Assembly (NCBI GenBank): GCA_965202915.1
Contig: OZ241847.1
Span: 1,665,972 to 1,729,971 of the forward strand
Reading direction: 5' to 3'
DNA: 64,000 nucleotides
Source: Gammaproteobacteria bacterium
GTDB lineage: Bacteria > Pseudomonadota > Gammaproteobacteria > Eutrophobiales > Eutrophobiaceae
How positions within the stretch are numbered: the stretch's first letter is position 1; each line of letters opens with the position of its first letter. The translations under genes were made by a program, and so were the position numbers. This document shows, one piece after another, positions 9,594 to 56,165 of this stretch. Under the pieces are notes generated by a model, which worked only from the letters and a program-made list of their open reading frames with translations, did no database searches and was not told where the DNA came from.

Positions 9594-9866
9594 ATGATCA
9601 AGTCCTTCAAGCACAGAGGCCTGGAGATGTTTTACGAAAGTGGCAGTGTTAGAGGAATTCAGGCGAAGCACGCCGACAGACTGAGAATGCGACTGGCGGC
9701 CCCGGATACCGCTCAATCCATCGATGACATCGATATTCCAGGGTATCGATTGCATCCGTTGACGGGTGAGCGAACAGGTGGCTGGTCGATCACTGTAAAT
9801 GCAAACTGGCGCCTTTGAATTTAAAGAAGGAAATGTATATATATTAAATTACGAGGATTATCACTA
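9594..9866 (+). pseudogene. higB: HigB (RelE/ParE-superfamily) toxin interrupted by a +1 frameshift near 9813-9816.
   Basis: Frame 0 gives MIKSFKHRGLEMFYESGSVRGIQAKHADRLRMRL...GWSITVNANWRL then a stop at 9816-9818. The +1 frame continues FEFKEGNVYILNYEDYH and stops at TAA 9865-9867, overlapping the higA ATG (TAATG). Both parts match the canonical HigB (PF05015) N- and C-termini. Confidence 0.8.
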
Positions 9867-10160
9867 ATGGCTATGCACAATCCCCCCCATCCGGGTGAAT
9901 TTATCGTGGCTTCCTATATGGAACCATTTGGTTTAAGTTGCCACTATCTTGCTGCGAAATTAGACGTTGCCGCATCAACCCTTAACCGAGTGCTGAAAAA
10001 GCAAAGTGGTATCAGCCCGAAAATGGCACTGCGCCTGTCTAAAGCCCTGGGGCGTAGTCCTGAAAGCTGGCTGGTGATGCAGGATAATTATGATCTTTGG
10101 AAGGCAAGGGGACGGGTGGAACTTCAAAAGATCAAAAAGATACCCCTTAACGCCGCATAA
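9867..10160 (+). CDS. higA: HigA antitoxin (XRE-family HTH).
   Basis: 97 aa. The HTH segment ...LSCHYLAAKLDVAASTLNRVLKKQSGISPKMALRLSKALG... is present, and it sits immediately downstream of higB. Confidence 0.85.
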   Translation: MAMHNPPHPGEFIVASYMEPFGLSCHYLAAKLDVAASTLNRVLKKQSGISPKMALRLSKALGRSPESWLVMQDNYDLWKARGRVELQKIKKIPLNAA

Positions 10161-30763: not shown

Positions 30764-33085
30764 TTGCCGTCATCTTCACAGGGGGGCAAACCGCATTCGG
30801 AGCAGATTCTAAACGCTATTGTTATGCCCAAATCACTGAACCTCGATCTCGAACAACCGGAAAAACAGCCCCTGCATGAATTTGCCGAGCAGGCTTATCT
30901 GGATTATTCCATGTACGTCATTCTGGACCGGGCGATCCCCGCCATCGGTGACGGTCTTAAACCGGTGCAGCGCCGGATCATTTATGCCATGTCCGAATTG
31001 GGCCTAAAGGCGACCGCAAAATATAAAAAATCCGCCCGTACCATCGGCGACGTGATCGGTAAATTTCATCCCCACGGCGATGCCGCCTGTTATGAATCGA
31101 TGGTATTAATGGCGCAGGATTTTTCCTGCCGTTATCCATTGATCGATGGTCAGGGTAATTGGGGGTCCATGGATGATCCCAGGTCCTTTGCCGCAATGCG
31201 TTATACCGAGTCAAAACTGACCGCCTATGCCGACCTGTTGATGAGCGAGGTCGGCCAGGGTACGGTCGACTGGATGCCGAATTTTGACGGCACCCTGCGG
31301 GAACCGCAATTACTGCCGGCGCGCTTGCCCAATATCCTGTTAAACGGATCGGCGGGCATTGCGGTGGGCATGGCCACCAATATTCCGCCGCATAACCTGC
31401 GCGAGGTCGCGGCCGCCTGCATCCATTTGCTGGACTCGCCCAGGGCCACGGTTGAAGAACTCTGTGAATATATCAAAGCCCCTGATTTTCCCACCAACGC
31501 CGAAATCATTACCCCGGTCGAGGAGCTTTTGGAGATCTATAAAAGCGGCGGCGGCTCAGTCAAAATGCGGGCCGTGTGGCAGCGGGAGGACGATAATATT
31601 ATTATCACCGCGTTGCCGTACCAGAGTGCCGGCGGTCGGGTGTTGGAACAGATAGCCGCGCAAATGCAGGCGAAAAAACTGCCGATGCTGGCCGATCTGC
31701 GAGATGAATCCGATCATGAGAACCCCACCCGGCTGGTGTTGATCCCCCGTTCCGGCCGATTCGACCCGGATAAATTGATGTCGCATCTGTTTGCCACCAC
31801 CGATCTGGAGAAAAGCAGCCGGGTTAATCTGAATATCATCGGCATCAATGGCCGGCCACGGGTAAAAGACCTGGCGACGATCCTCAGGGAATGGTTGCAA
31901 TATCGGCTGGCGACGGTCAGACGCCGCCTGCAGCATCGCCTGGACAGCATAGAGGCACAACTGCATATATTGGCGGGCCTGATGATCGCCTATCTGAACC
32001 TGGACGCGATCATTGCGATAATACGGGAACAGGAGAACCCGAAATTAATACTGCGGCGGCAGTTTGCACTCAGCGACCGGCAGGCCGAGGCGATACTGGA
32101 ATTAAAATTACGCAAACTGGCCCGATTGGAGGAGCTCAAACTCAAGGGCGAACTCGATAAACTTGAGGCCGAACGCCGCTCATTGCAGCAGATTCTCGGC
32201 TCCCGGCGGCGGCTCAATACATTGATCAAACGAGAGTTACAGGCGGACGCGAAAACCTTTGGCGATGACAGACTATCACCATTGAAGCAAAGACGGGAAG
32301 CCAGGGCCATCGACCCGGTAAGCCTGGTGCCCACCGAACCGATCACCGTTATTCTTTCAAAAAAAGGCTGGATCAGGGCCGCAAAGGGCCATAACATCGA
32401 TCCGCTGGCATTGAATTATCGCAGTGGTGACGGCCTCCGGCAGACCAGCGCCGGCAGAAGTAATCAAAACGTTTTATTGCTGGATTCCACCGGCCGCTGC
32501 TATTCCCTGCCGGCACATTCCCTGGCCTCCGCACGCGGTCTGGGTGAACCGGTTTCAGGACGGTTGATGCCGCCGGATGGCGCGGTATTTATCGGCGTGA
32601 TGACCGGCGATCCCGAGGCCATGTATTTGCTGGCCTCGGACGCCGGCTATGGTTTTGTTGCAACCCTGGCGGCGCTGCATACCAGGAATAAAAACGGCAA
32701 GGCGGTGATCACCGTGCCGGCAGGGGCAAAGCTGCTTTGCCCGGCGGGGGTTGACGACGTGGAAACCGGTCGAGTGGCGGTAGTCAGCTCAATCGGGCGG
32801 TTGCTGATTTTTCCAATCGCTGAATTACCGGTATTGTCGAAGGGCAAGGGCCTGAAGATCATTCAAATTCCGCCGCAAAAATTGAAGACAGGAGCGGAAC
32901 GGGTCGCCGCAATCACCGCCCTTGGCCACGCCGATGATCTGATCATTCACTCAGGCCAGAGATATATGACCCTCAGGCGGCGCGATCAGGAATACTATCT
33001 TGGCCGCCGCGGACGCCGAGGCAACACCCTGCCGCAGGGGTTTCGCAACGTCGCCCGGTTAAAGGCCGGCGGGGTCGATACGTGA
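30764..33085 (+). CDS. parC: DNA topoisomerase IV subunit A.
   Basis: 773 aa. The N-terminus [45 protein letters not shown] matches E. coli ParC. Confidence 0.9.
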
Positions 33086-33426
33086 ACGGCGGTTGCGTCG
33101 GAAGACGACCCTTGCCAGGCGGTGAATCTGCACATCCTATGACCACTTGCACACCGCCTATAACCACGAACATCGTAAAGCACGGCACAAAGGCGTATAT
33201 GAATGGAATGGCTCACACAAACGGCATTGAGAGTGTCTGGGCGATGCTGAAAAGAGGGATTTACGGCACCTATCACCATGTCAGCAAAAAGCACCTTAAC
33301 CGCTATATTGACGAGTTCATATTCCATTTGAATGAGGGAAACGTCAATGTCTTGCTGGTAAGCCGTATCGCTTCGTTGAGTTGTATGAGCGCAGGCATGC
33401 CCTATAAGCCACTGCTCAGGGGATGA
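33082..33426 (+). mobile_element. IS1595-family (ISXO2-like) transposase C-terminal remnant.
   Basis: ...HTNGIESVWAMLKRGIYGTYHHVSKKHLNRYIDEFIFHLNEGNV... matches the C-terminal DDE-region tail of IS1595-family transposases. The N-terminal ~250 aa are absent, and the fragment abuts the parC stop codon. Confidence 0.65.
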
Positions 33427-34343
33427 GCACAATGCCAAGTCTCAATGCTATTGCGGCTAGTTGTTCAAAGTCCATATTCCAGTCACGCATTATCACCGGC
33501 GATGTTCTGAAAACACTGAAAAACCAGCCCTTTAATCTGAAGTTTGATGTAGTAATTGCCGACCCGCCGTATAACATTGGCAAGGATTTTGGGAACAACA
33601 ACGATAGCCTACCTATTGACGATTATGTCGACTGGTGCAACCAATGGCTAGAGCAATGCTTTCGCCTGTTGACCGATAATGGATTGGTCTATGTGTACGG
33701 GTTCCACGAGGTTTTAGCGCGTATTGCAGTAAATTATCCGGTGGATGAGCAACGCTGGCTGGCGTGGCATTACACTAACAAAGCAGTGCCATCCTCAAAG
33801 TTCTGGCAACGATCCCACGAGGCAATCCTGTGCCTGTGGAAACCGGGGACCAAGCGGCCAATATTGGAAATTGACCAAATCCGAGAACCATACACACCCA
33901 ATTTCCTCAAATGTGCTGGCAGGGAGAGAAACGACACAAAGGGCAGGTACAGCAAAAAAGGAAAAAAGACAATTTACAACGACAACGGCGGCGCACTTCC
34001 TCGTGATGTAATTGATATACCTGCATTAGCTGGCGGTGCTGGTCGGGTGGAGCGGTGGTTTTCATGCCGGGAATGTGGCGGAGAGGTGAGGCCGCCTAGT
34101 GAATTGGCAAATCATGCTGGCCACAGCATACTCAAACATCCTACTCAAAAACCAATGGAGTTGACTAGGCGGCTGATATTGTCCCGAATCAACGGCCGGC
34201 AGGGCCGCACCTTGATACCCTTCACAGGGTCAGGCTCCGAGTGTGTAGTTGCAAAATCGCTTGGAGTCGAGTTTCTTGGCATTGAAATCAATCCTGAATA
34301 CGCTAAATTCGGGCGCAGTTGGTTAAAGCAATGTACCACTTGA
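33423..34343 (+). CDS. Site-specific DNA methyltransferase (N4/N6 amino-MTase, beta class).
   Basis: 306 aa. DPPY (VVIADPPYNIG) lies upstream of motif I (IPFTGSGSECVVA). The HPTQKP motif and a Cys-rich insert are present. Confidence 0.85.
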   Translation: MSTMPSLNAIAASCSKSIFQSRIITGDVLKTLKNQPFNLKFDVVIADPPYNIGKDFGNNNDSLPIDDYVDWCNQWLEQCFRLLTDNGLVYVYGFHEVLARIAVNYPVDEQRWLAWHYTNKAVPSSKFWQRSHEAILCLWKPGTKRPILEIDQIREPYTPNFLKCAGRERNDTKGRYSKKGKKTIYNDNGGALPRDVIDIPALAGGAGRVERWFSCRECGGEVRPPSELANHAGHSILKHPTQKPMELTRRLILSRINGRQGRTLIPFTGSGSECVVAKSLGVEFLGIEINPEYAKFGRSWLKQCTT

Positions 34344-34921
34344 CTCCGCGAATGACGCAACGGCTCAAAGCGGACCTGGCCAAATACCACGATCTGTTCA
34401 CAGGAAAACGATGCGAGAGTTGGGAATTGGAAGAGTTGATTGTTGCAGCAATCAAATCAGACACGCAGGCACAGCATCATGTTCGTTGGCAGGAAAAGGG
34501 GCATGATGATCTCGCCGATATTGTCGTGCGGACGAATGGATCACAGCATTCAATTCAAATCAAATCCGGGCAGATAAAAGCAGGCAAGTTGATATTGTCT
34601 GGCCACAGATTGGGCCGATTCAATGGCGTAATGGATGATATTGGCGCATACCTCAATACGCCGAGAGCAAATATCATGGCGGTTCCGCACAGATTGATAG
34701 ATGATAGCAAAGGGCGCCAGCATATTTATCGCGTATGCTATGTGGATATTAAGATAATGACTGGCCTTGAGACCAATAAATGGGAAAAGCGGGGCGCGCA
34801 ATATGTCCAAACAAACGCGGGAGGTGTAGAGTTCTCTTTGCGGCCGTCTATGAGTTGGCAAATCTGGTGGGCTATACCCGTAAGCCTAATTGAACAAACC
34901 GATGAGTTTGTTATCGGCTAG
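34319..34921 (+). CDS. Putative type II restriction endonuclease (PD-(D/E)XK-like), cognate to the upstream MTase.
   Basis: 200 aa overlapping the MTase by 25 bp. A candidate catalytic core HDDLADIVVR...SIQIKSG (D...D...QxK) is present. The assignment rests mainly on context. Confidence 0.45.
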   Translation: MVKAMYHLTPRMTQRLKADLAKYHDLFTGKRCESWELEELIVAAIKSDTQAQHHVRWQEKGHDDLADIVVRTNGSQHSIQIKSGQIKAGKLILSGHRLGRFNGVMDDIGAYLNTPRANIMAVPHRLIDDSKGRQHIYRVCYVDIKIMTGLETNKWEKRGAQYVQTNAGGVEFSLRPSMSWQIWWAIPVSLIEQTDEFVIG

Positions 34922-34991
34922 TTTGTTTATTTCAGGGTATAATTCCCTAATATAGCCTCTTTTCCAGCCCATCTATATTTTAAAGAAAAAA

Positions 34992-35554
34992 ATGACGACC
35001 TTCAGCACCAATCAATTCAAACCCGGCTTAAAGCTGATGATAGACGGCGAGCCGTGCTCGATTATTGAAACCGAATTTATTAAATCCGGCAAGAGACAGG
35101 CGTTCAACCGGGTGAAATTGCGCAACCTGAAAAATGGCCGGGTACTGGAAAAAACCTGGAATTCGGGTGACAGTGTCGCCGCCGCGGACGTGATGGAACT
35201 GGATATGCAGTATCGGACGGCGGTCTGTGGCATTTTATGGATCCAGATTCATATGAACAATACGCCGCCACCGCAACCGTGATGACCGACGTCAGTCCCT
35301 GGCTGAAAGGCGGCGAAGTATGCCTGGTCACACTCTGGAATGACTCACTTTTATCCGTGCTGCCGCCGAATTTCGTGATGCTGGCAATAGCCGAAACCGA
35401 TCCGGGGCTGGTGGGAGATACCGTATCATCCGGCACAAAGCCGGCAAAATTGGAAACCGGCGCGATGATAAAAGTGCCGCTGTTTATTGACACCGGTGAA
35501 ATTGTCAAAATAGACACCCGCACCGGTGAATACGTTGGCCGCAGCAAATCCTAG
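34992..35554 (+). CDS. efp: Elongation factor P. Its frame is interrupted by an apparent 1-nt deletion near 35211-35216 (ORFs 34992..35282 and 35237..35554).
   Basis: The N-terminal part [46 protein letters not shown]...MQY and, in the -1 frame, [16 protein letters not shown]...[27 protein letters not shown] align collinearly with E. coli EF-P. The junction is TAT-CGG versus an expected TATTCG. Confidence 0.85.
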
Positions 35555-35595
35555 CGGTCACCGCCGCAGTTAGCCGCGTCGCAACAAACATTTTA

Positions 35596-35624
35596 TTGAC
35601 GTTTCGGTGCAATATGGCTATACT
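35596..35624 (+). promoter_or_regulatory. Strong candidate sigma70 promoter for the FG-GAP protein gene.
   Basis: TTGACG-N17-TATACT, followed by a direct repeat ttttggttaagat x2 and the RBS AGGAG before ATG 35742. Confidence 0.55.
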
Positions 35625-35741
35625 TTCAATGATTGGCCCGATAGGTGATTTACGGGGCTATTTCGGGACCATTTCGTTTTTGGTTAAGATTTTGGTTAAG
35701 ATATTACCCCTTACAACGCTTAGGATATACAGGAGCTTCAG

Positions 35742-36032
35742 ATGGGCAGCAAGGCAAAATTCAAGGGCGGCTTATTGCGCCCGGTATCGCTGACGACCGG
35801 GTTGCCGGTGCTCGGTGCCTTTGGCAGCAACCGGATTTACCGCAGCACTGAGCAAACCGACGCCGAGATCGACCCCGGAGCCGGGCTTATTTTGTCGCCG
35901 GACGCAACGACTGGATTGCCGGGGCAAGTTGAGGCGCTTATCCTGTCGGCAAACCCGGCCTCTGGTCCGCTGAGTTTTACCCCCCCCCCCCCCCCTCAAT
36001 CCCAAGCCAGGCCTAGCGTCACAGGCATATAG
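35742..36032 (+). CDS. 5' segment (96 codons) of the FG-GAP repeat protein gene, terminated by a frame shift at the poly-C tract.
   Basis: A good promoter and RBS sit upstream. The ORF runs into the C16 tract (coding TPPPPP) and stops 36 nt later. The downstream 1010-codon frame is open from 35974 through the same tract. Confidence 0.6.
   Translation: MGSKAKFKGGLLRPVSLTTGLPVLGAFGSNRIYRSTEQTDAEIDPGAGLILSPDATTGLPGQVEALILSANPASGPLSFTPPPPPQSQARPSVTGI
35980..35995 (+). repeat. Homopolymeric poly-C tract (16 nt) inside the coding region, a candidate slipped-strand phase-variation switch.
   Basis: C16 read directly from the sequence. C15 or C18 would fuse 35742..36032 with 36091..39123 into one ~1,126-codon ORF. 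Confidence 0.9.
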
Positions 36033-36090: not shown

Positions 36091-39000
36091 GTGGCACCAC
36101 CACCGCCGGTGACCCCGGCAAACCCGTTACCCCCGGCGTCCGCGCTTATCGACCAACAATCGCAGGCCTTTGAGCCGCTTGCACTGCACGCCACCGCAAC
36201 CGGGCCACAGCGGCCCGAAGTCGCATTTCAGACCGGCGCTGTATCCCTGGTCTCTCTGAACCTGAACCAACAGCAGGGTATAGAGGCGCAAGACGCACAA
36301 ATACTGTATTACGTCGCCCTGTCGCCGGCCAATTTGACGACCCTGCTGGACAATCTGAGGGGAACCGACGCCGAGGCGGATCTTATAACCCGTGCGAATG
36401 CCTGGCTGAACCAGGACCTGGGCCTGAGCACCCTGCCCGATCTGAACAATGACAATATCCTGAACCAGGAGGATGCACGCATCCTGTACTATGCCTATCG
36501 GTTTGGCGATCTGCTGCGCGTCAGTCCCAGCCTGCGCGAGGCAATACTGGGCGATCTGACCGACGAAGACGATAGTGCCGCCAATCCGGATGACGTATAT
36601 CGGGAGATACTGGACCGGACTGGGTTATTCAGGCCGTCGGTGATCGACCTGACCAGCCTTGGTGAGGCCGACGGCTTTATTATCCAGGGCGATGCGGCCA
36701 GGGACGGGGCGGGCGTGAGCGTATCCACTGTCGGCGACGTCAACGGCGACGGCTATGCCGATGTAATCGTCGGGGCGCGCGGTGGCGACGACGGTGGCAG
36801 GAATGCCGGCGAGGCCTACGTGGTATTTGGCAGGGCGGGCGCCTTTGGCAGCCTGGACGGCACCAACCGCCGGGTGATCGACCTGACCAGCCTTAGCGAG
36901 GCGGACGGTTTTATCATCCAGGGCTTGGGAGGCGACCAGGTGGGCGAGGGCATATCCGGCGCCGGCGACGTCAACGGCGACGGCTATGCCGACCTGATTG
37001 TTGGGGCGCACCTGGGTGACGACGGTGGCAGGAATGCCGGCGAGGCCTACGTGGTGTTTGGTAAGGCGGGCTTCTTTGGCAGCCTGGACGGCACCGACCG
37101 CCGGGTGATCGACCTGACCAGCCTTAGCGAGACGGACGGCTTTATTATCCAGGGCGACGCGGTCGGGGACCGTGCAGGCGAGCGCGTATCCGGCGCCGGG
37201 GACGTGAATGGCGACGGCTTTGCCGATCTGATCGTCGGGGCGCAGTCGGCCAACGACGGTGGTACCGATGCCGGCGAGGCCTACGTGGTGTTCGGCAGGG
37301 CGGGCCCCTTTGGCAGCTTGGACGGCACCAGCCGCCGGGTGATCGACCTGACCCGCCTTAGCGAGACGGACGGCTTTATTATCCAGGGCGACGCGGTCGG
37401 GGACCGTGCGGGCTGGAGCGTATCCGGCGCCGGGGACGTGAACGGTGACGGCTATGCCGACCTGATCGTCGGGGCGCTCTATGGCGACGACGGCGGGGAA
37501 AATGCCGGCGAGGCCTATGTCGTGTTCGGCAGAGCATCCGGCTTTGGCAGTGACGTCACCACCACAGTGGATGGGGAAGGCAGCTTCATCCGCCGGGTGA
37601 TCGACCTGACTGGTCTGAGCGAAGCCGATGGCTTTATCATCCAGGGCGATGAGGCCGGTGCCTATGCGGGCAATAGAGTTGGTGATACTGCGGGCTTTAG
37701 CGTATCCGGCGCCGGGGACGTGAACGGCGACGGCTATGCCGACCTGATTGTCGGGGCACGCCGGGGTGACGACGGTGACGACGTTGACGTCAATGCCGGC
37801 GAGGCCTACGTGGTGTTAGGCAAGGCGGGCGGCTTTGGTATTGACGTCACCACCACAGTTGAGAGGGAAGGCAGCTTCACCCGCCGGGTGATCGACCTGA
37901 CGAGCCTGGCCGCGGAGGACGGCTTTATCATCCAGGGCGATATGGCTGGGGACAATGCGGGCTTTAGCGTATCCACTGCCGGGGACTTCAACGGCGACGG
38001 CTTTGCCGACCTGATCGTCGGGGCACTTGGGGGCGACGACGGTGGGGAAAATGCCGGCGAGGCCTACGTGGTGTTCGGCAAGGCGGGCGGTTTTGGTATT
38101 GACGTCACCACCACAGTTGAGGGGGAAGGCAGCTTCACCCGCCGGGTGGTCGACCTGGATGGCCTGGTTGCAACGGACGGCTTTATTATCCAGGGTGATG
38201 CGCCTGGCGACTATGCGGGCTATAGCGTATCCGCTGCCGGCGATATAAACGGCGACGGCTATGCCGACCTGATCGTCGGAGCAATCAGGGGCGACGACGG
38301 TGACGACAGTGACATCAATGCCGGCGAGGCCTACGTGCTGTTCGGCGGCCTGGCCGCCGGCCTAAGTTCCGAGGCCACCGTATTACTCGGCACCGGCGGC
38401 AACGACGACCTCAACGTCGACGGCCGTGCCACGGTTGTACTCGCCGGCGCCGGCGATGACGTGCTGACCGTGGACGGCTTCACCAATACCGATCTGCTCA
38501 AATTCGATGGCGGCACCGGCACCGATACCCTGCGCTTCGCCAACCCCGACGCAGACACCGGCCTGAGCCTGGATTTAAGCACCCTCGCCGACACCCGCCT
38601 GAGCAGCATAGAGCGCATAGACCTCAGTGGCAGCGGCGACAATAGGCTAACCCTGATCCGTCTGGACCTGTTGAACCTGTCCGAGGCGCGCACTAATGGC
38701 CGCGCCGAGCTACGGGTCGACGGCAACGCCGGCGACCGCGTCAGCGCCACCGATACCGGCTGGACGCAGCAGGCTGATATCATCACCGACGACGGCATGT
38801 ACAGGGTCTTTGACAACGGCAATGCCCGCCTGCTGGTCAATATGGAGGTGGCGCTGGGCGACAATTTAATGGCGGCCAGCATGGCCAGCCGGGATGAGCT
38901 CCTGCAAAGCTGTTGCGGCACGCAGACCGTCGATATCCGCGCATTGCTGCAGGCCCTGCCGCCGCCGGACGAAGAGCAACAGCGCAGGATCATGGAAGAT

Positions 39001-39123
39001 GAATTGGCGATGTTGGGGCCGTCACCGGAGGCAAAGGCGGCGATGATGCCTGATGAACCCACGGCGGCACCGGAGACCGACCTGTTCGACCTGCCGCCGC
39101 TCATCCCGGATGATGGCATGTAG
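36091..39123 (+). CDS. Large FG-GAP (integrin-alpha-like beta-propeller) repeat protein with an N-terminal Pro-rich linker plus a dockerin-like module and a C-terminal Gly/Asp-rich region loosely reminiscent of RTX repeats. It is probably the distal part of the phase-variable gene starting at 35742.
   Basis: About 10 tandem ~72-aa repeats (RRVIDLTSLSEADGFIIQGD...GDVNGDGYADLIVGA...DGG.NAGEAYVVFG.AG.FG) match the FG-GAP consensus. The N-terminus carries a dockerin-like pair (LNLNQQQGIEAQDAQILYY..., DLNNDNILNQEDARILYYAYRF). The C-terminus has GGNDDLNVDG...AGAGDDVLTVDG...FDGGTGTDTLRF. Confidence 0.8.
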   Translation: MAPPPPVTPANPLPPASALIDQQSQAFEPLALHATATGPQRPEVAFQTGAVSLVSLNLNQQQGIEAQDAQILYYVALSPANLTTLLDNLRGTDAEADLITRANAWLNQDLGLSTLPDLNNDNILNQEDARILYYAYRFGDLLRVSPSLREAILGDLTDEDDSAANPDDVYREILDRTGLFRPSVIDLTSLGEADGFIIQGDAARDGAGVSVSTVGDVNGDGYADVIVGARGGDDGGRNAGEAYVVFGRAGAFGSLDGTNRRVIDLTSLSEADGFIIQGLGGDQVGEGISGAGDVNGDGYADLIVGAHLGDDGGRNAGEAYVVFGKAGFFGSLDGTDRRVIDLTSLSETDGFIIQGDAVGDRAGERVSGAGDVNGDGFADLIVGAQSANDGGTDAGEAYVVFGRAGPFGSLDGTSRRVIDLTRLSETDGFIIQGDAVGDRAGWSVSGAGDVNGDGYADLIVGALYGDDGGENAGEAYVVFGRASGFGSDVTTTVDGEGSFIRRVIDLTGLSEADGFIIQGDEAGAYAGNRVGDTAGFSVSGAGDVNGDGYADLIVGARRGDDGDDVDVNAGEAYVVLGKAGGFGIDVTTTVEREGSFTRRVIDLTSLAAEDGFIIQGDMAGDNAGFSVSTAGDFNGDGFADLIVGALGGDDGGENAGEAYVVFGKAGGFGIDVTTTVEGEGSFTRRVVDLDGLVATDGFIIQGDAPGDYAGYSVSAAGDINGDGYADLIVGAIRGDDGDDSDINAGEAYVLFGGLAAGLSSEATVLLGTGGNDDLNVDGRATVVLAGAGDDVLTVDGFTNTDLLKFDGGTGTDTLRFANPDADTGLSLDLSTLADTRLSSIERIDLSGSGDNRLTLIRLDLLNLSEARTNGRAELRVDGNAGDRVSATDTGWTQQADIITDDGMYRVFDNGNARLLVNMEVALGDNLMAASMASRDELLQSCCGTQTVDIRALLQALPPPDEEQQRRIMEDELAMLGPSPEAKAAMMPDEPTAAPETDLFDLPPLIPDDGM

Positions 39124-39131
39124 CCACCACC

Positions 39132-39424
39132 GGAGCCCGTGACTCCCGTCGCGGGTAAAACAACCCCCCCTGACAAGGGGGCAGGGGGGGTTCCCCCAAC
39201 ACCGGCACCTTACCCCAATCACCCCGGATTCCCAAACTGCACCGAGTCTTTGCCGAACAACACCAAACCACCCCAATTAACACCAAACCCCCCAACCCCC
39301 CTTGTCAGGGGGGCTACTGAGCGACACCGGCACCTTTCCCCCAACCAACACCGTGAGCGGGGCTGAGTTGCGGGTTGACGATAATGTTGATTGTTATATA
39401 CCCGCGACGGGAGTCACGGGCTCC
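39132..39424. mobile_element. MITE-like element copy A (293 bp) with 26-bp perfect terminal inverted repeats.
   Basis: ggagcccgtgactcccgtcgcgggta ... tacccgcgacgggagtcacgggctcc. The interior shares ~200 bp with copy B and carries C/G homopolymer hairpins. It begins 9 bp after the stop codon of the FG-GAP gene. Confidence 0.8.
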
Positions 39425-39580
39425 TGTGATGAGCGGTGCAGGCCTCTGCTGAACAATTTCATTTGATAACGGCGGGGCGTGGGTCTATACTGACTATATG
39501 AAAGATACGAGCATACCGGTAACACCCTGTGGCAAGTGGATGATAACTGTCGTCCCGTATAAATTATCCGGTACCTGAAT

Positions 39581-40027
39581 ATGGAAGCCATCGCATTTGA
39601 TACCCATAAATTTGTCAAGCACCTGACTGCATCGGGTTTCACCGAAGCGCAGGCGGAAGCCCTGGCCGGTGAGCAGGTCGATATGATTAACAGCAATCTG
39701 GCCACCAAGGCCGACATAGAGAAACTGCGCCTGGCCACCAAGGCCGACATAGAGAAACTGCGCCTGGCCACCAAGGCGGACATAGAGCAACTGCGCGCGG
39801 ACACCAGGGCGGACATTGCCGAGGTGAAGGCGGACATAGAGAAACTGCGCCTGGCCACCCAGGAGGACATAGAGAAACTGCGCCTGGCGACCCAGGCGAA
39901 CATAGAGCAACTGCGCGCGGACACCAGGGCGGACATTGCCAATACCGAATCAAGACTGACGCGCTGGATCGTTGGTGCGATGATTGCGCAGATCGGCGTG
40001 GTTGTCGGGTTGATTAAATTGAGTTGA
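39581..40027 (+). CDS. DUF1640-like coiled-coil protein with a C-terminal transmembrane helix and internal 11-aa tandem repeats.
   Basis: 148 aa. The N-terminus MEAIAFDTHKFVKHLTASGFTEAQAEALAG is followed by (LATKADIEKLR)n encoded by 33-nt tandem repeats (~39697-39950) and a C-terminal hydrophobic WIVGAMIAQIGVVVGLI. Confidence 0.6.
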   Translation: MEAIAFDTHKFVKHLTASGFTEAQAEALAGEQVDMINSNLATKADIEKLRLATKADIEKLRLATKADIEQLRADTRADIAEVKADIEKLRLATQEDIEKLRLATQANIEQLRADTRADIANTESRLTRWIVGAMIAQIGVVVGLIKLS

Positions 40028-40029
40028 CA

Positions 40030-40292
40030 GGAGCCCGTGACTCCCGTCGCGGGTAAAACCCACACCCAGCACGCCGGATTCCCCAACCCCCCCGGATTCC
40101 CAAACTGCACCGAGTCTTTGCCGAACAACACCAAACCACCCCAATTAACACCAAACCCCCCAACCCCCCTTGTCAGGGGGGCTACTGAGCGACGCCGGCA
40201 CCTTTCCCCCAACCAACACTGTGAGTCGTGCTGAGTTGCGGGTTGACGATAATGTTGATTGTTATATACCCGCGACGGGAGTCACGGGCTCC
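40030..40292. mobile_element. MITE-like element copy B (263 bp), same family and orientation as copy A.
   Basis: Identical TIRs. Its 5' module (caggag+hairpin+taaaacccacacccagcacgccggattcc) is homologous to the core unit of the 2133..2800 array. Confidence 0.8.
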
Positions 40293-40411
40293 TGTAACTA
40301 TAAGGCAACCGCCGGACAAAACCCGCCAGGCCGGATCTGCCGGGATCAAACAATATCTATTATGCTCGGCCTGCTTTACAATGTAAGCGATATGAACGGA
40401 ATGAGCCTGCA

Positions 40412-54498: not shown

Positions 54499-55398
54499 TT
54501 ACTGCTCTAAAACATCTTTCAACGTATCAATCTGCTGCTGATAGATTTCCGGCCTATCCCGCCTGAATTGCTCTAAGTTCGAGAGTTTCCATTTTACCGA
54601 TGGAAATTCCTGAAAATCATAAATCGACCAATCTGGCTCTAAACCATTAAGGCTTAGTAAAAACGCTCTATCATTTTCATTTAAACTCGTCTTTACCGTT
54701 TCGATTAATTGCAGTCTTGTGGCCTCATATTCATCGTAACTAAACTCAATCACGTTCATGCCTTCAAACTGATTTTCAAACGCCGTTCGCTGATCGATCA
54801 AATGAGGAACAAGCATTTCATGGGTCGGGCGATTACTGCTCACCAGACCCAAAATGAAGCCTTGCTTGATCTCATCGGTAAAGCCTTCATTATCCAGTAA
54901 CAGCTTTACATCAAATAAATCTCGTGGATGTTGCCTGTCCAGGGCAGCACATAACTTGCCACCATATAATTGCGCCAAGGGTACAAGCGGCATCGCACAA
55001 AACGCATCAAATTCCTCTTGAGCGGCTTCGCAAAGTGGCTTCTTATTGGAGTCACCCAGCAGGCCTCGCCCTACCATGTTTACTTCTATCTTGATGAGTA
55101 CACCGTGCTCATCCAGTTGTAATTTGCAAACCTTCTCTTTGTGTTGAACGCGTATTGACGAGCGCAACCCTTCGATACGATCTTTAATGCGAACAAGCGC
55201 CGCATTAATCCCATCAAGCGTTTCATTACGTTCAGCAATCTCGACATAGGTTAAATCGATATCAACCGACAGCCTTGGCATATCGCGCATAAAGAGATTG
55301 ATCGCCGTGCCGCCATGCATGGCAAAACATGCTTCTTTAGCTACTTCTGGCAACACATCCAAAAGCAGCCTGACCTGTTTTTTGCAGGCGTCATTCAT
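54499..55398 (-). CDS. AbiEii/AbiGii-family nucleotidyltransferase toxin (type IV TA / abortive infection).
   Basis: 299 aa. The N-terminal MHGGTAINLFMRDMPRLSVDIDLTY matches the DUF1814/AbiEii motif. Confidence 0.8.
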   Translation of the reverse strand: MNDACKKQVRLLLDVLPEVAKEACFAMHGGTAINLFMRDMPRLSVDIDLTYVEIAERNETLDGINAALVRIKDRIEGLRSSIRVQHKEKVCKLQLDEHGVLIKIEVNMVGRGLLGDSNKKPLCEAAQEEFDAFCAMPLVPLAQLYGGKLCAALDRQHPRDLFDVKLLLDNEGFTDEIKQGFILGLVSSNRPTHEMLVPHLIDQRTAFENQFEGMNVIEFSYDEYEATRLQLIETVKTSLNENDRAFLLSLNGLEPDWSIYDFQEFPSVKWKLSNLEQFRRDRPEIYQQQIDTLKDVLEQ

Positions 55399-56165
55399 GC
55401 CGCCGCCTCTAATTCCCTGGGAACGGTTATCTGGTATTTCGAGACATAGACGCCATCGCTCACGATGGCACGTTTACCTGAGCCCAAATCAACCTTATCC
55501 AGATTGATATAACCAAGCCATTCATGGCCTGCCTTATCTGCCAAATACAAAAACAGGCGCTTCACTTTGATAGAGGTGCAGGCTTCAAGTAATTTTTGTA
55601 CTGTTGCCGGCCGCAAATTATTCAAGCCTTGCATCAGCTCAAACACCTCGACAAGCGGCTGAGACTTGGGTGCCAAATATAAACATTCCATTACTGCACG
55701 AGCAGAGCCGGATATCTGCACCTTAAAACTTTTATGATCGATCTCGACCAAACCAAGATCAGGCGGCAAAAAGCTCGTCAGCTTACACTCTACGCTCAAG
55801 CCCCAATCCCGCTTTTTAAACCAAAGCGGCAAGCTCTCATCCTTACCACCAAAAAGCTGTGCCCTCTTTGTAGAAAGCTCCAAATAGTGGGATTTCCCCT
55901 GCAATGACAGTGCTGTTTTGCCCGCCGGATGCACATAGAGGCCGAGCTGAGACTGCAAAGCATAGATGCCCCCCAAATAGTCCACTTGATCACCATGGCG
56001 TATCAGAGCACCCGTGCCGATAGAATCAAACCACTGGCTTTTCTTGTACTGTTTTTGCAGATCGAGGCTATAGCCCTGTTCTGTCAACCATGCGGAAGAG
56101 AGCACTATGCCCGAAGGCTGAGTGCTAAGCAGAGTGTTTAATTTTGACTCTCTCTCGGTATTCAT
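55395..56165 (-). CDS. AbiEi-family antitoxin/transcriptional regulator.
   Basis: 256 aa. The N-terminal winged-HTH pattern LLSTQPSGIVLSSAWLTEQGYS...YKKSQWFDSIGTGALI is typical of AbiEi. It overlaps AbiEii by 4 bp. Confidence 0.7.
   Translation of the reverse strand: MNTERESKLNTLLSTQPSGIVLSSAWLTEQGYSLDLQKQYKKSQWFDSIGTGALIRHGDQVDYLGGIYALQSQLGLYVHPAGKTALSLQGKSHYLELSTKRAQLFGGKDESLPLWFKKRDWGLSVECKLTSFLPPDLGLVEIDHKSFKVQISGSARAVMECLYLAPKSQPLVEVFELMQGLNNLRPATVQKLLEACTSIKVKRLFLYLADKAGHEWLGYINLDKVDLGSGKRAIVSDGVYVSKYQITVPRELEAAA

Follow-up and report, generated by a model that had tools for sequence, protein, structure and literature searches.

Loss of elongation factor P (EF-P) is usually costly for bacteria. 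The canonical EpmA/EpmB-type factor, as in E. coli (PDB 6enj, 3a5z) and Coxiella (3tre), has three domains and a Lys34 at the tip of its modification loop that becomes beta-lysyl-Lys34. An invariant proline at −2 of the tip lysine has been described for Lys-type EF-Ps; in E. coli EF-P the P32S substitution abolishes activity and G35N leaves 3.8% of it (PMC6544042). EF-Ps of a PGKGP subfamily are unmodified (bioRxiv 10.1101/2023.09.18.558224). Historical losses or replacements of EF-P are ancient, and polyproline motifs were lost with them in Lon, FtsH, ValS and other proteins (Brewer and Wagner 2024, PMC11388002). A translation-factor gene split over two reading frames is known from prfB (RF2), whose programmed shift is +1, is conserved across bacteria and occurs at a defined slippery and stop site. 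The locus described here, in a gammaproteobacterial stretch of 64,000 nucleotides (the window), shares features with each of these systems and differs from all of them.

The feature is a broken copy of this well-known gene. Two overlapping ORFs on the + strand cross the interval, one at 34992-35282 (96 aa) and one at 35237-35554 (105 aa), and no single uninterrupted efp ORF of about 185-190 codons is present in the window. The 96-aa ORF contains the EFP_N/KOW-like N-terminal domain PF08207 (Pfam E 1e-24). The −1 frame, from ∼35192 to 35554, encodes the EF-P OB domain PF01132 (1e-12) followed by the C-terminal domain PF09285, Elong-fact-P_C (6e-26). The three domains are collinear, yet spread over two frames. 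When the halves are joined, the sequence scores above the NCBIfam cut-offs for EF-P (TIGR00038, 218.9 against 185.8; PRK00529, 225.4 against 161). The preliminary description of this DNA had efp running on in the −1 frame with both halves collinear with EF-P, and the Pfam and NCBIfam scores bear this out far beyond chance; the break is also where it was placed, at ...CAG TAT C(35214)|G(35215)G ACG. An identity as EfpL/YeiP was considered and rejected, with the joined sequence falling under both cut-offs (PRK04542, 96.1 against 216; TIGR02178, 86.4 against 264).

The 5′ part of efp (34992..35214, + strand) holds codons 1-74 and the first base of codon 75, which encode KOW-like domain I with its beta3-beta4 loop, and indels aside it equals the sequence of the independent contigs L005, L006 and L174. 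The 3′ part (35215..35554, + strand, −1 frame) runs from the last base of codon 77 to codon 189 and the stop, and encodes OB domain II and C-terminal domain III. As it stands, the first ORF (34992..35282, + strand) reads 74 EF-P residues and 22 out-of-frame residues before its stop, for a total of 96 aa. The putative second ORF (35237..35554, + strand, 105 aa) begins at Met85 of EF-P and is absent from the protein collection, which contains instead a 90-aa efp fragment called from the source genome. The window gene is the organism's ordinary efp, broken in the window sequence.

DNA alignment against the intact relatives L001, L002 and L005 places a 7-nt deletion, TCTATCA, between C35214 and G35215. 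At this junction (35214..35215, + strand) the window reads CAGTATC, the gap, then GGACGG, where L001 reads CAGTATCTCTATCAGGACGG and L002 is alike but with TTTATCAT. The missing bases are TCTATCA in L001, L005 and L006 and TTTATCA in L002, and they appear in BLAST comparisons as gaps as well. The intact reading, CAG TAT C[TC TAT CA]G GAC, encodes Q-Y-L-Y-Q-D; the deletion takes two bases of the Leu75 codon, the whole of Tyr76 and two bases of Gln77, and shifts the frame within the first strand of domain II. Intact EF-P proteins of this lineage are 189 aa long and carry the motif MQYLYQDGGLWHF. Among 126 scanned sequences of EF-P length (the homologues listed by the EF-P protein search together with the lineage's own alleles), about 110 have the YLY motif. 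The lesion had been described as the loss of a single nucleotide, with a T doublet reduced to a single T. Alignment with three intact relatives shows it to be 7 nt. Insertion of one T does restore the frame, as had been proposed, but leaves Leu75 and Tyr76 of the YLY motif missing. The gap has only one possible placement, and there is no flanking microhomology and no homopolymer or simple repeat at 35214/35215; TCTATCA sits in complex sequence.

Protein searches identified two intact 189-aa EF-Ps, P0001 (98% identical) and P0002 (88% identical), encoded on contigs L001 and L002. A closer relative is L005, a Logan assembly contig of SRR23871860 reached via the methyltransferase gene upstream of efp. 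Over window positions 33128-35945, L005 has no mismatches and one gap, the 7 nt, in 2825 columns, and its efp encodes an intact 189-aa protein (P0132). Because an otherwise identical strain lacks the deletion, the lesion is either very young or a local assembly error, and not an old pseudogene; taken as a mutation, it would be younger than any point mutation between the two sequences. This comparison, together with a dN/dS of 0.14 (at dS 0.34) that indicates purifying selection on efp within the lineage, agrees with the earlier judgement that a long-standing efp pseudogene is unlikely. The 96-aa product of the deleted allele is recorded from the 2,489,980-nt source contig only. Exact-product look-ups of the 96-aa, 105-aa and 90-aa fragments in the contig index returned no record, and in the cluster index the 96-aa and 90-aa products come from the source contig only. 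The EF-P cluster at 90% identity has four members: two intact proteins from Logan contigs, the 90-aa source fragment, and a protein designated P0134. More distant matches to the intact protein reach at best 68% (a Thiogranum MAG) among GTDB species genomes, in which the species itself has no entry, and a scan of JGI metagenome contigs gave no lineage members among the matches listed (best listed 66%). Identity to gammaproteobacterial EF-Ps is 64-71%.

P0134 (186 aa) derives from contig ctg146746_58x_l of ENA assembly ERZ25068762, a locus represented by L006, L087 and L093. All three carry a 9-nt in-frame deletion corresponding to window positions 35018-35026 (L006 10027), which takes out Lys10-Pro11-Gly12 of the conserved F-[RK]-x-G motif. 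This site is 197 nt upstream of the 7-nt site, at which L006 is intact, and the window, L005 and L006 are otherwise identical over efp and about 1 kb of flank. In the 27.4 kb common to the window and the P0134 contig, the 7-nt and 9-nt gaps are the sole multi-base indels, and both lie in the first 225 nt of efp. The probability of both falling in one 563-nt gene by random placement is about 2%. A different deletion in the same gene of a sister assembly thus disfavors random sequencing noise. The sample closest to the window is SRR23871863, whose contig L174 has 3 mismatches in 22.9 kb. L174 matches the window perfectly from 33128 and ends at 35017, 1 nt from the boundary of the 9-nt indel, and no complete efp product from this sample is on record. 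Together these two observations hint that the reads may be heterogeneous inside efp. The contig end was considered as proof of a 9-nt polymorphism and downgraded to suggestive, since a pure k = 31 de Bruijn branch would end at 35018 rather than 35017.

To place the lesion against the background of assembly error, we compared the window with near-identical independent contigs gathered through exact-protein look-ups (L003, L005, L090, L091 and L092; 99.74-99.99% identity). The 7 nt in efp are the sole indel in 42.3 kb aligned (29.2 kb unique). A second frameshifted gene in the window, higB (9594-9870), is cut to 74 aa. Its C-terminus, FEFKEGNVYILNYEDYH, goes on in the +1 frame, for which a deletion of 2 or 5 nt after NWR would account, and the adjacent higA (9867-10160) appears intact. 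The truncated 74-aa HigB of the source genome is matched exactly on an independent Logan contig, and the assembly is therefore faithful for real small lesions. With no other indel in 42.3 kb and the higB lesion reproduced independently, the assembly is not generally indel-prone, and its noise cannot be gauged from the two frameshifts. The preliminary description had used them in this way, as a calibration of indel error, and that use is not supported. Whichever explanation of efp is true, its frameshift gives no reason to distrust lengths called elsewhere in the window, that of the poly-C tract included.

The surroundings of efp are ordinary core genome, with all of the following intact: tkt-gap-pgk-fba, the Mrp antiporter, tig-clpP-clpX-lon, rubrerythrin-CCG-DUF3501 and parE-parC, in addition to asd, bioBFCD, purC, rne, prfC, lepA and uvrB. 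Synteny is anchored by parC (30764..33085, + strand) and the upstream rubrerythrin, CCG, DUF3501 and parE genes. The relative L008 has the order rubrerythrin-CCG-DUF3501-parE-parC-htpX-efp-epmA, and because this neighborhood is common to both, the window gene is the positional ortholog of canonical gammaproteobacterial efp. No remnants of epmA, epmB or htpX were found in the window or in the sister loci. Near the 5′ end of parC, at 30781 (about 3915 in L001), a G run is G6 in the window, L003, L005 and L006 and G5 in L001, where the called ParC is 753 aa instead of 773 aa.

Directly upstream of efp is a strain-variable island (33129..34944, + strand). It has an IS1595 DDE remnant at about 33199-33426, the gene of an N6/N4 DNA methyltransferase at 33423-34343 and, at 34595-34921, an unknown ORF. 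We found four structural variants of this parC-efp island among near-identical strains. L001 has nothing between parC and efp, L006 has an IS1595 zinc-ribbon fragment alone, and L005 and L174 have the zinc-ribbon fragment, the DDE fragment, the methyltransferase and one ORF. The window is of the L005/L174 type minus the 654-nt IS1595 zinc-ribbon segment. Relative to L005, L174 and the tail of L003 this is a clean deletion at 33128, 2.1 kb upstream of the efp lesion, which suggests that the window is a distinct real haplotype. Deletions of 7, 9, 654 and about 2090 nt are thus found within 2.5 kb on a SNP-free background.

More unusual biology than the broken efp lies nearby, in the modification loop and in the missing genes for its modification enzymes. 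The intact lineage allele aligns residue for residue with the solved EF-Ps, E. coli included, over positions 1-188, and the three domains, the tip Lys34 and the chromosomal neighborhood (that of L008) are as in the canonical type. The window allele differs in its 7-nt frame break and in its loop, and there is no epmA or epmB at the efp locus, anywhere in the 64 kb, or at the related loci. Codons 31-37 (35082..35102, + strand) read K-S-G-K-R-Q-A, with the tip lysine kept, Ser in place of the usual Pro32 and Arg in place of the usual Gly35. The Lys-type pattern KPGKGQA, with proline at −2 of the tip lysine, is therefore absent here; of the 126 scanned sequences of EF-P length, 116 have it, as do 78/78 gammaproteobacterial loci. 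KSGKRQA is found in every lineage allele (window, L001, L002, L005 and L006) and, among the sequences sampled, in this lineage only. In other relatives epmA and epmB flank efp (L007, L009) or epmA follows it (L008). The serine at −2, the altered loop and the lack of epmA/epmB at the locus suggest, by inference from sequence, that the lineage EF-P may work without beta-lysylation or with another modification. The unmodified PGKGP subfamily offers a possible parallel, as a case of an altered loop working without EpmA/EpmB, although the two loops differ.

We favor the explanation that the window carries a real and very recent loss-of-function allele of efp, either a nascent pseudogene or a segregating deleterious variant rather than base-calling noise or an ancient loss, and consider the chances that this is correct to be about even. 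The clean assembly, a gap unlike a sequencing error, the linked 654-nt deletion and the independent 9-nt lesion all argue for it. The setting would be a mixture of near-identical strains whose deletions and insertions concentrate in a hot spot, the parC-efp region, and the assembled haplotype would be a deletion derivative of an L005-type strain. Loss of TCTATCA would inactivate the organism's ordinary efp, and translation would yield a 96-aa product consisting of KOW domain I and 22 junk residues. From the known three-domain architecture, such a product could not span the ribosomal E/P-site region, and the haplotype would thus be left with no functional EF-P. The deletion may be carried by a clone or sub-population that dominates the long-read assembly. 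Its main competitor, to which we give somewhat less than an even chance, is that efp is intact and that the 7-nt gap and the 9-nt gap of the sister assembly are local artefacts of assembly or polishing, generated when long reads of several co-occurring strains, which differ in structure at the parC-efp island, were merged or polished into one consensus. Several observations fit this competitor and count against a real allele: the deleted allele is on record from the deposited assembly alone, and L005, the sole independent same-strain contig crossing the site, is intact with no other difference. Intactness in L005 is what an error would produce, and it is equally compatible with an allele confined to a sub-population. 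The two deleted alleles derive from ENA/NCBI assemblies of long-read style (ctg146746_58x_l in the sister strain) and the two intact ones from k-mer (Logan) assemblies, as a technology or polishing effect would also give. The gaps lie 73-270 nt from the structural-variant boundary at 34945, where alignments of mixed-strain reads are error-prone. Purifying selection on efp in the lineage is a further point for an artefact, and a real allele also has to accommodate the usual cost of losing EF-P, with no second efp seen among the best relatives, and an L174 end that is 1 nt off the de Bruijn branch predicted for the 9-nt indel. Against an artefact, the consensus is otherwise excellent over the 42.3 kb compared, higB in this assembly bears a genuine lesion, and a short-read-style contig breaks beside the 9-nt site. 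The 7-nt gap lies in non-repetitive sequence, and to our knowledge such a gap corresponds to no base-calling error type. Moreover, both sites have the same sequence in all strains, and mixing of their reads should therefore not create a gap. If the deletion is nevertheless an artefact, efp is miscalled in the deposited genome, and even an otherwise clean assembly can acquire small consensus gaps beside strain-variable islands.

Two further explanations are less probable. The deletion could be real and harmless if a second EF-P-type gene elsewhere, either a canonical efp or an EfpL/YeiP paralog, had made this a decaying, dispensable copy. The atypical KSGKRQA loop and the lack of the adjacent epmA/epmB seen in relatives would suit a spare copy, and a spare copy would easily tolerate two independent disruptive deletions. 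We regard it as unlikely, however, given that the gene occupies the ancestral efp position (rubrerythrin-CCG-DUF3501-parE-parC-...-efp), evolves at a lineage dN/dS of 0.14 and belongs to a small genome of 2.49 Mb. Moreover, the 120 best relatives of this EF-P include no second efp from the source contig, and neither do those of the canonical P0016; this is a weak negative for a second canonical copy. Recoding is far less probable still. A programmed −1 ribosomal frameshift could in principle restore full-length EF-P, since the frames share 115 nt (35168-35282) and a −1 shift anywhere in the overlap would join them. Yet the overlap contains no X_XXY_YYZ slippery heptamer, the rescued product would still lack the conserved Leu75-Tyr76, and each of the listed homologues is one uninterrupted ORF, 187-221 aa long and in most cases 189 aa. 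Unlike the shift in prfB, the one in efp goes in the −1 direction, lacks a slippery site and is seen in no relative. With L001, L002 and L005 uninterrupted at 189 aa and without the frameshift, programmed frameshifting is effectively refuted.

If the allele is real, as we favor, the only efp detectable in this genome of free-living size (2.49 Mb) is a null allele at consensus frequency, and a second independent lesion is found in a sister strain. The locus would then be a natural system for studying how bacteria cope without EF-P, and would open the question of whether beta-lysylation is dispensable for a Lys-type EF-P that has Ser at −2 and Arg at +1. As in the lineages of historical loss or replacement (PMC11388002), efp is disturbed here in a natural lineage, and both cases raise the question of whether proteins that contain polyproline tolerate this. 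In contrast to those lineages, the polyproline motifs examined here are retained, GPPG of Lon (GPPGVGKT) and PPP of LepA, and the lesion postdates every SNP. Because these motifs are kept, the lineage is not adapted to life without EF-P; with the dN/dS of 0.14, they point to a continuing need for efp. A more far-reaching idea, which we hold to be doubtful, is that EF-P is on its way out in this uncultured lineage. The adjacent EpmA/EpmB genes would have been lost, the loop changed to KSGKRQA, and independent deletions would have reached consensus frequency in co-occurring strains with no second efp, making them natural efp-null bacteria. The source of such deletions would perhaps be an error-prone break-repair hot spot beside the IS1595/restriction-modification island.

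Several other features of the window were observed. Directly downstream of efp, a C16 tract (35980-35995) encodes PPPPP in a 96-aa ORF (35742-36032). The frame of the 1010-aa FG-GAP ORF that follows (36091-39123) is open backwards through the tract, and with C15, C12 or C18 the two ORFs would be fused into one protein of about 1130 aa. From its sequence the tract looks like a slipped-strand phase switch, and such a switch would be OFF in the window (C16), in L006 (C16) and in L001 (C13). The short-read contig L005 stops 35 nt short of it. The stretch from the FG-GAP gene to asd contains direct repeats of 215 nt (39213-39427 and 40081-40295; 96.7% identity, 868 nt apart) with nested 114-nt tandem-like repeats (39707-39820 and 39827-39940; 93.9%). 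On the minus strand, prfC and pdxJ are separated by an AbiEi/AbiEii toxin-antitoxin (abortive infection) pair (54499-56165) that L091 and L092 have as well.
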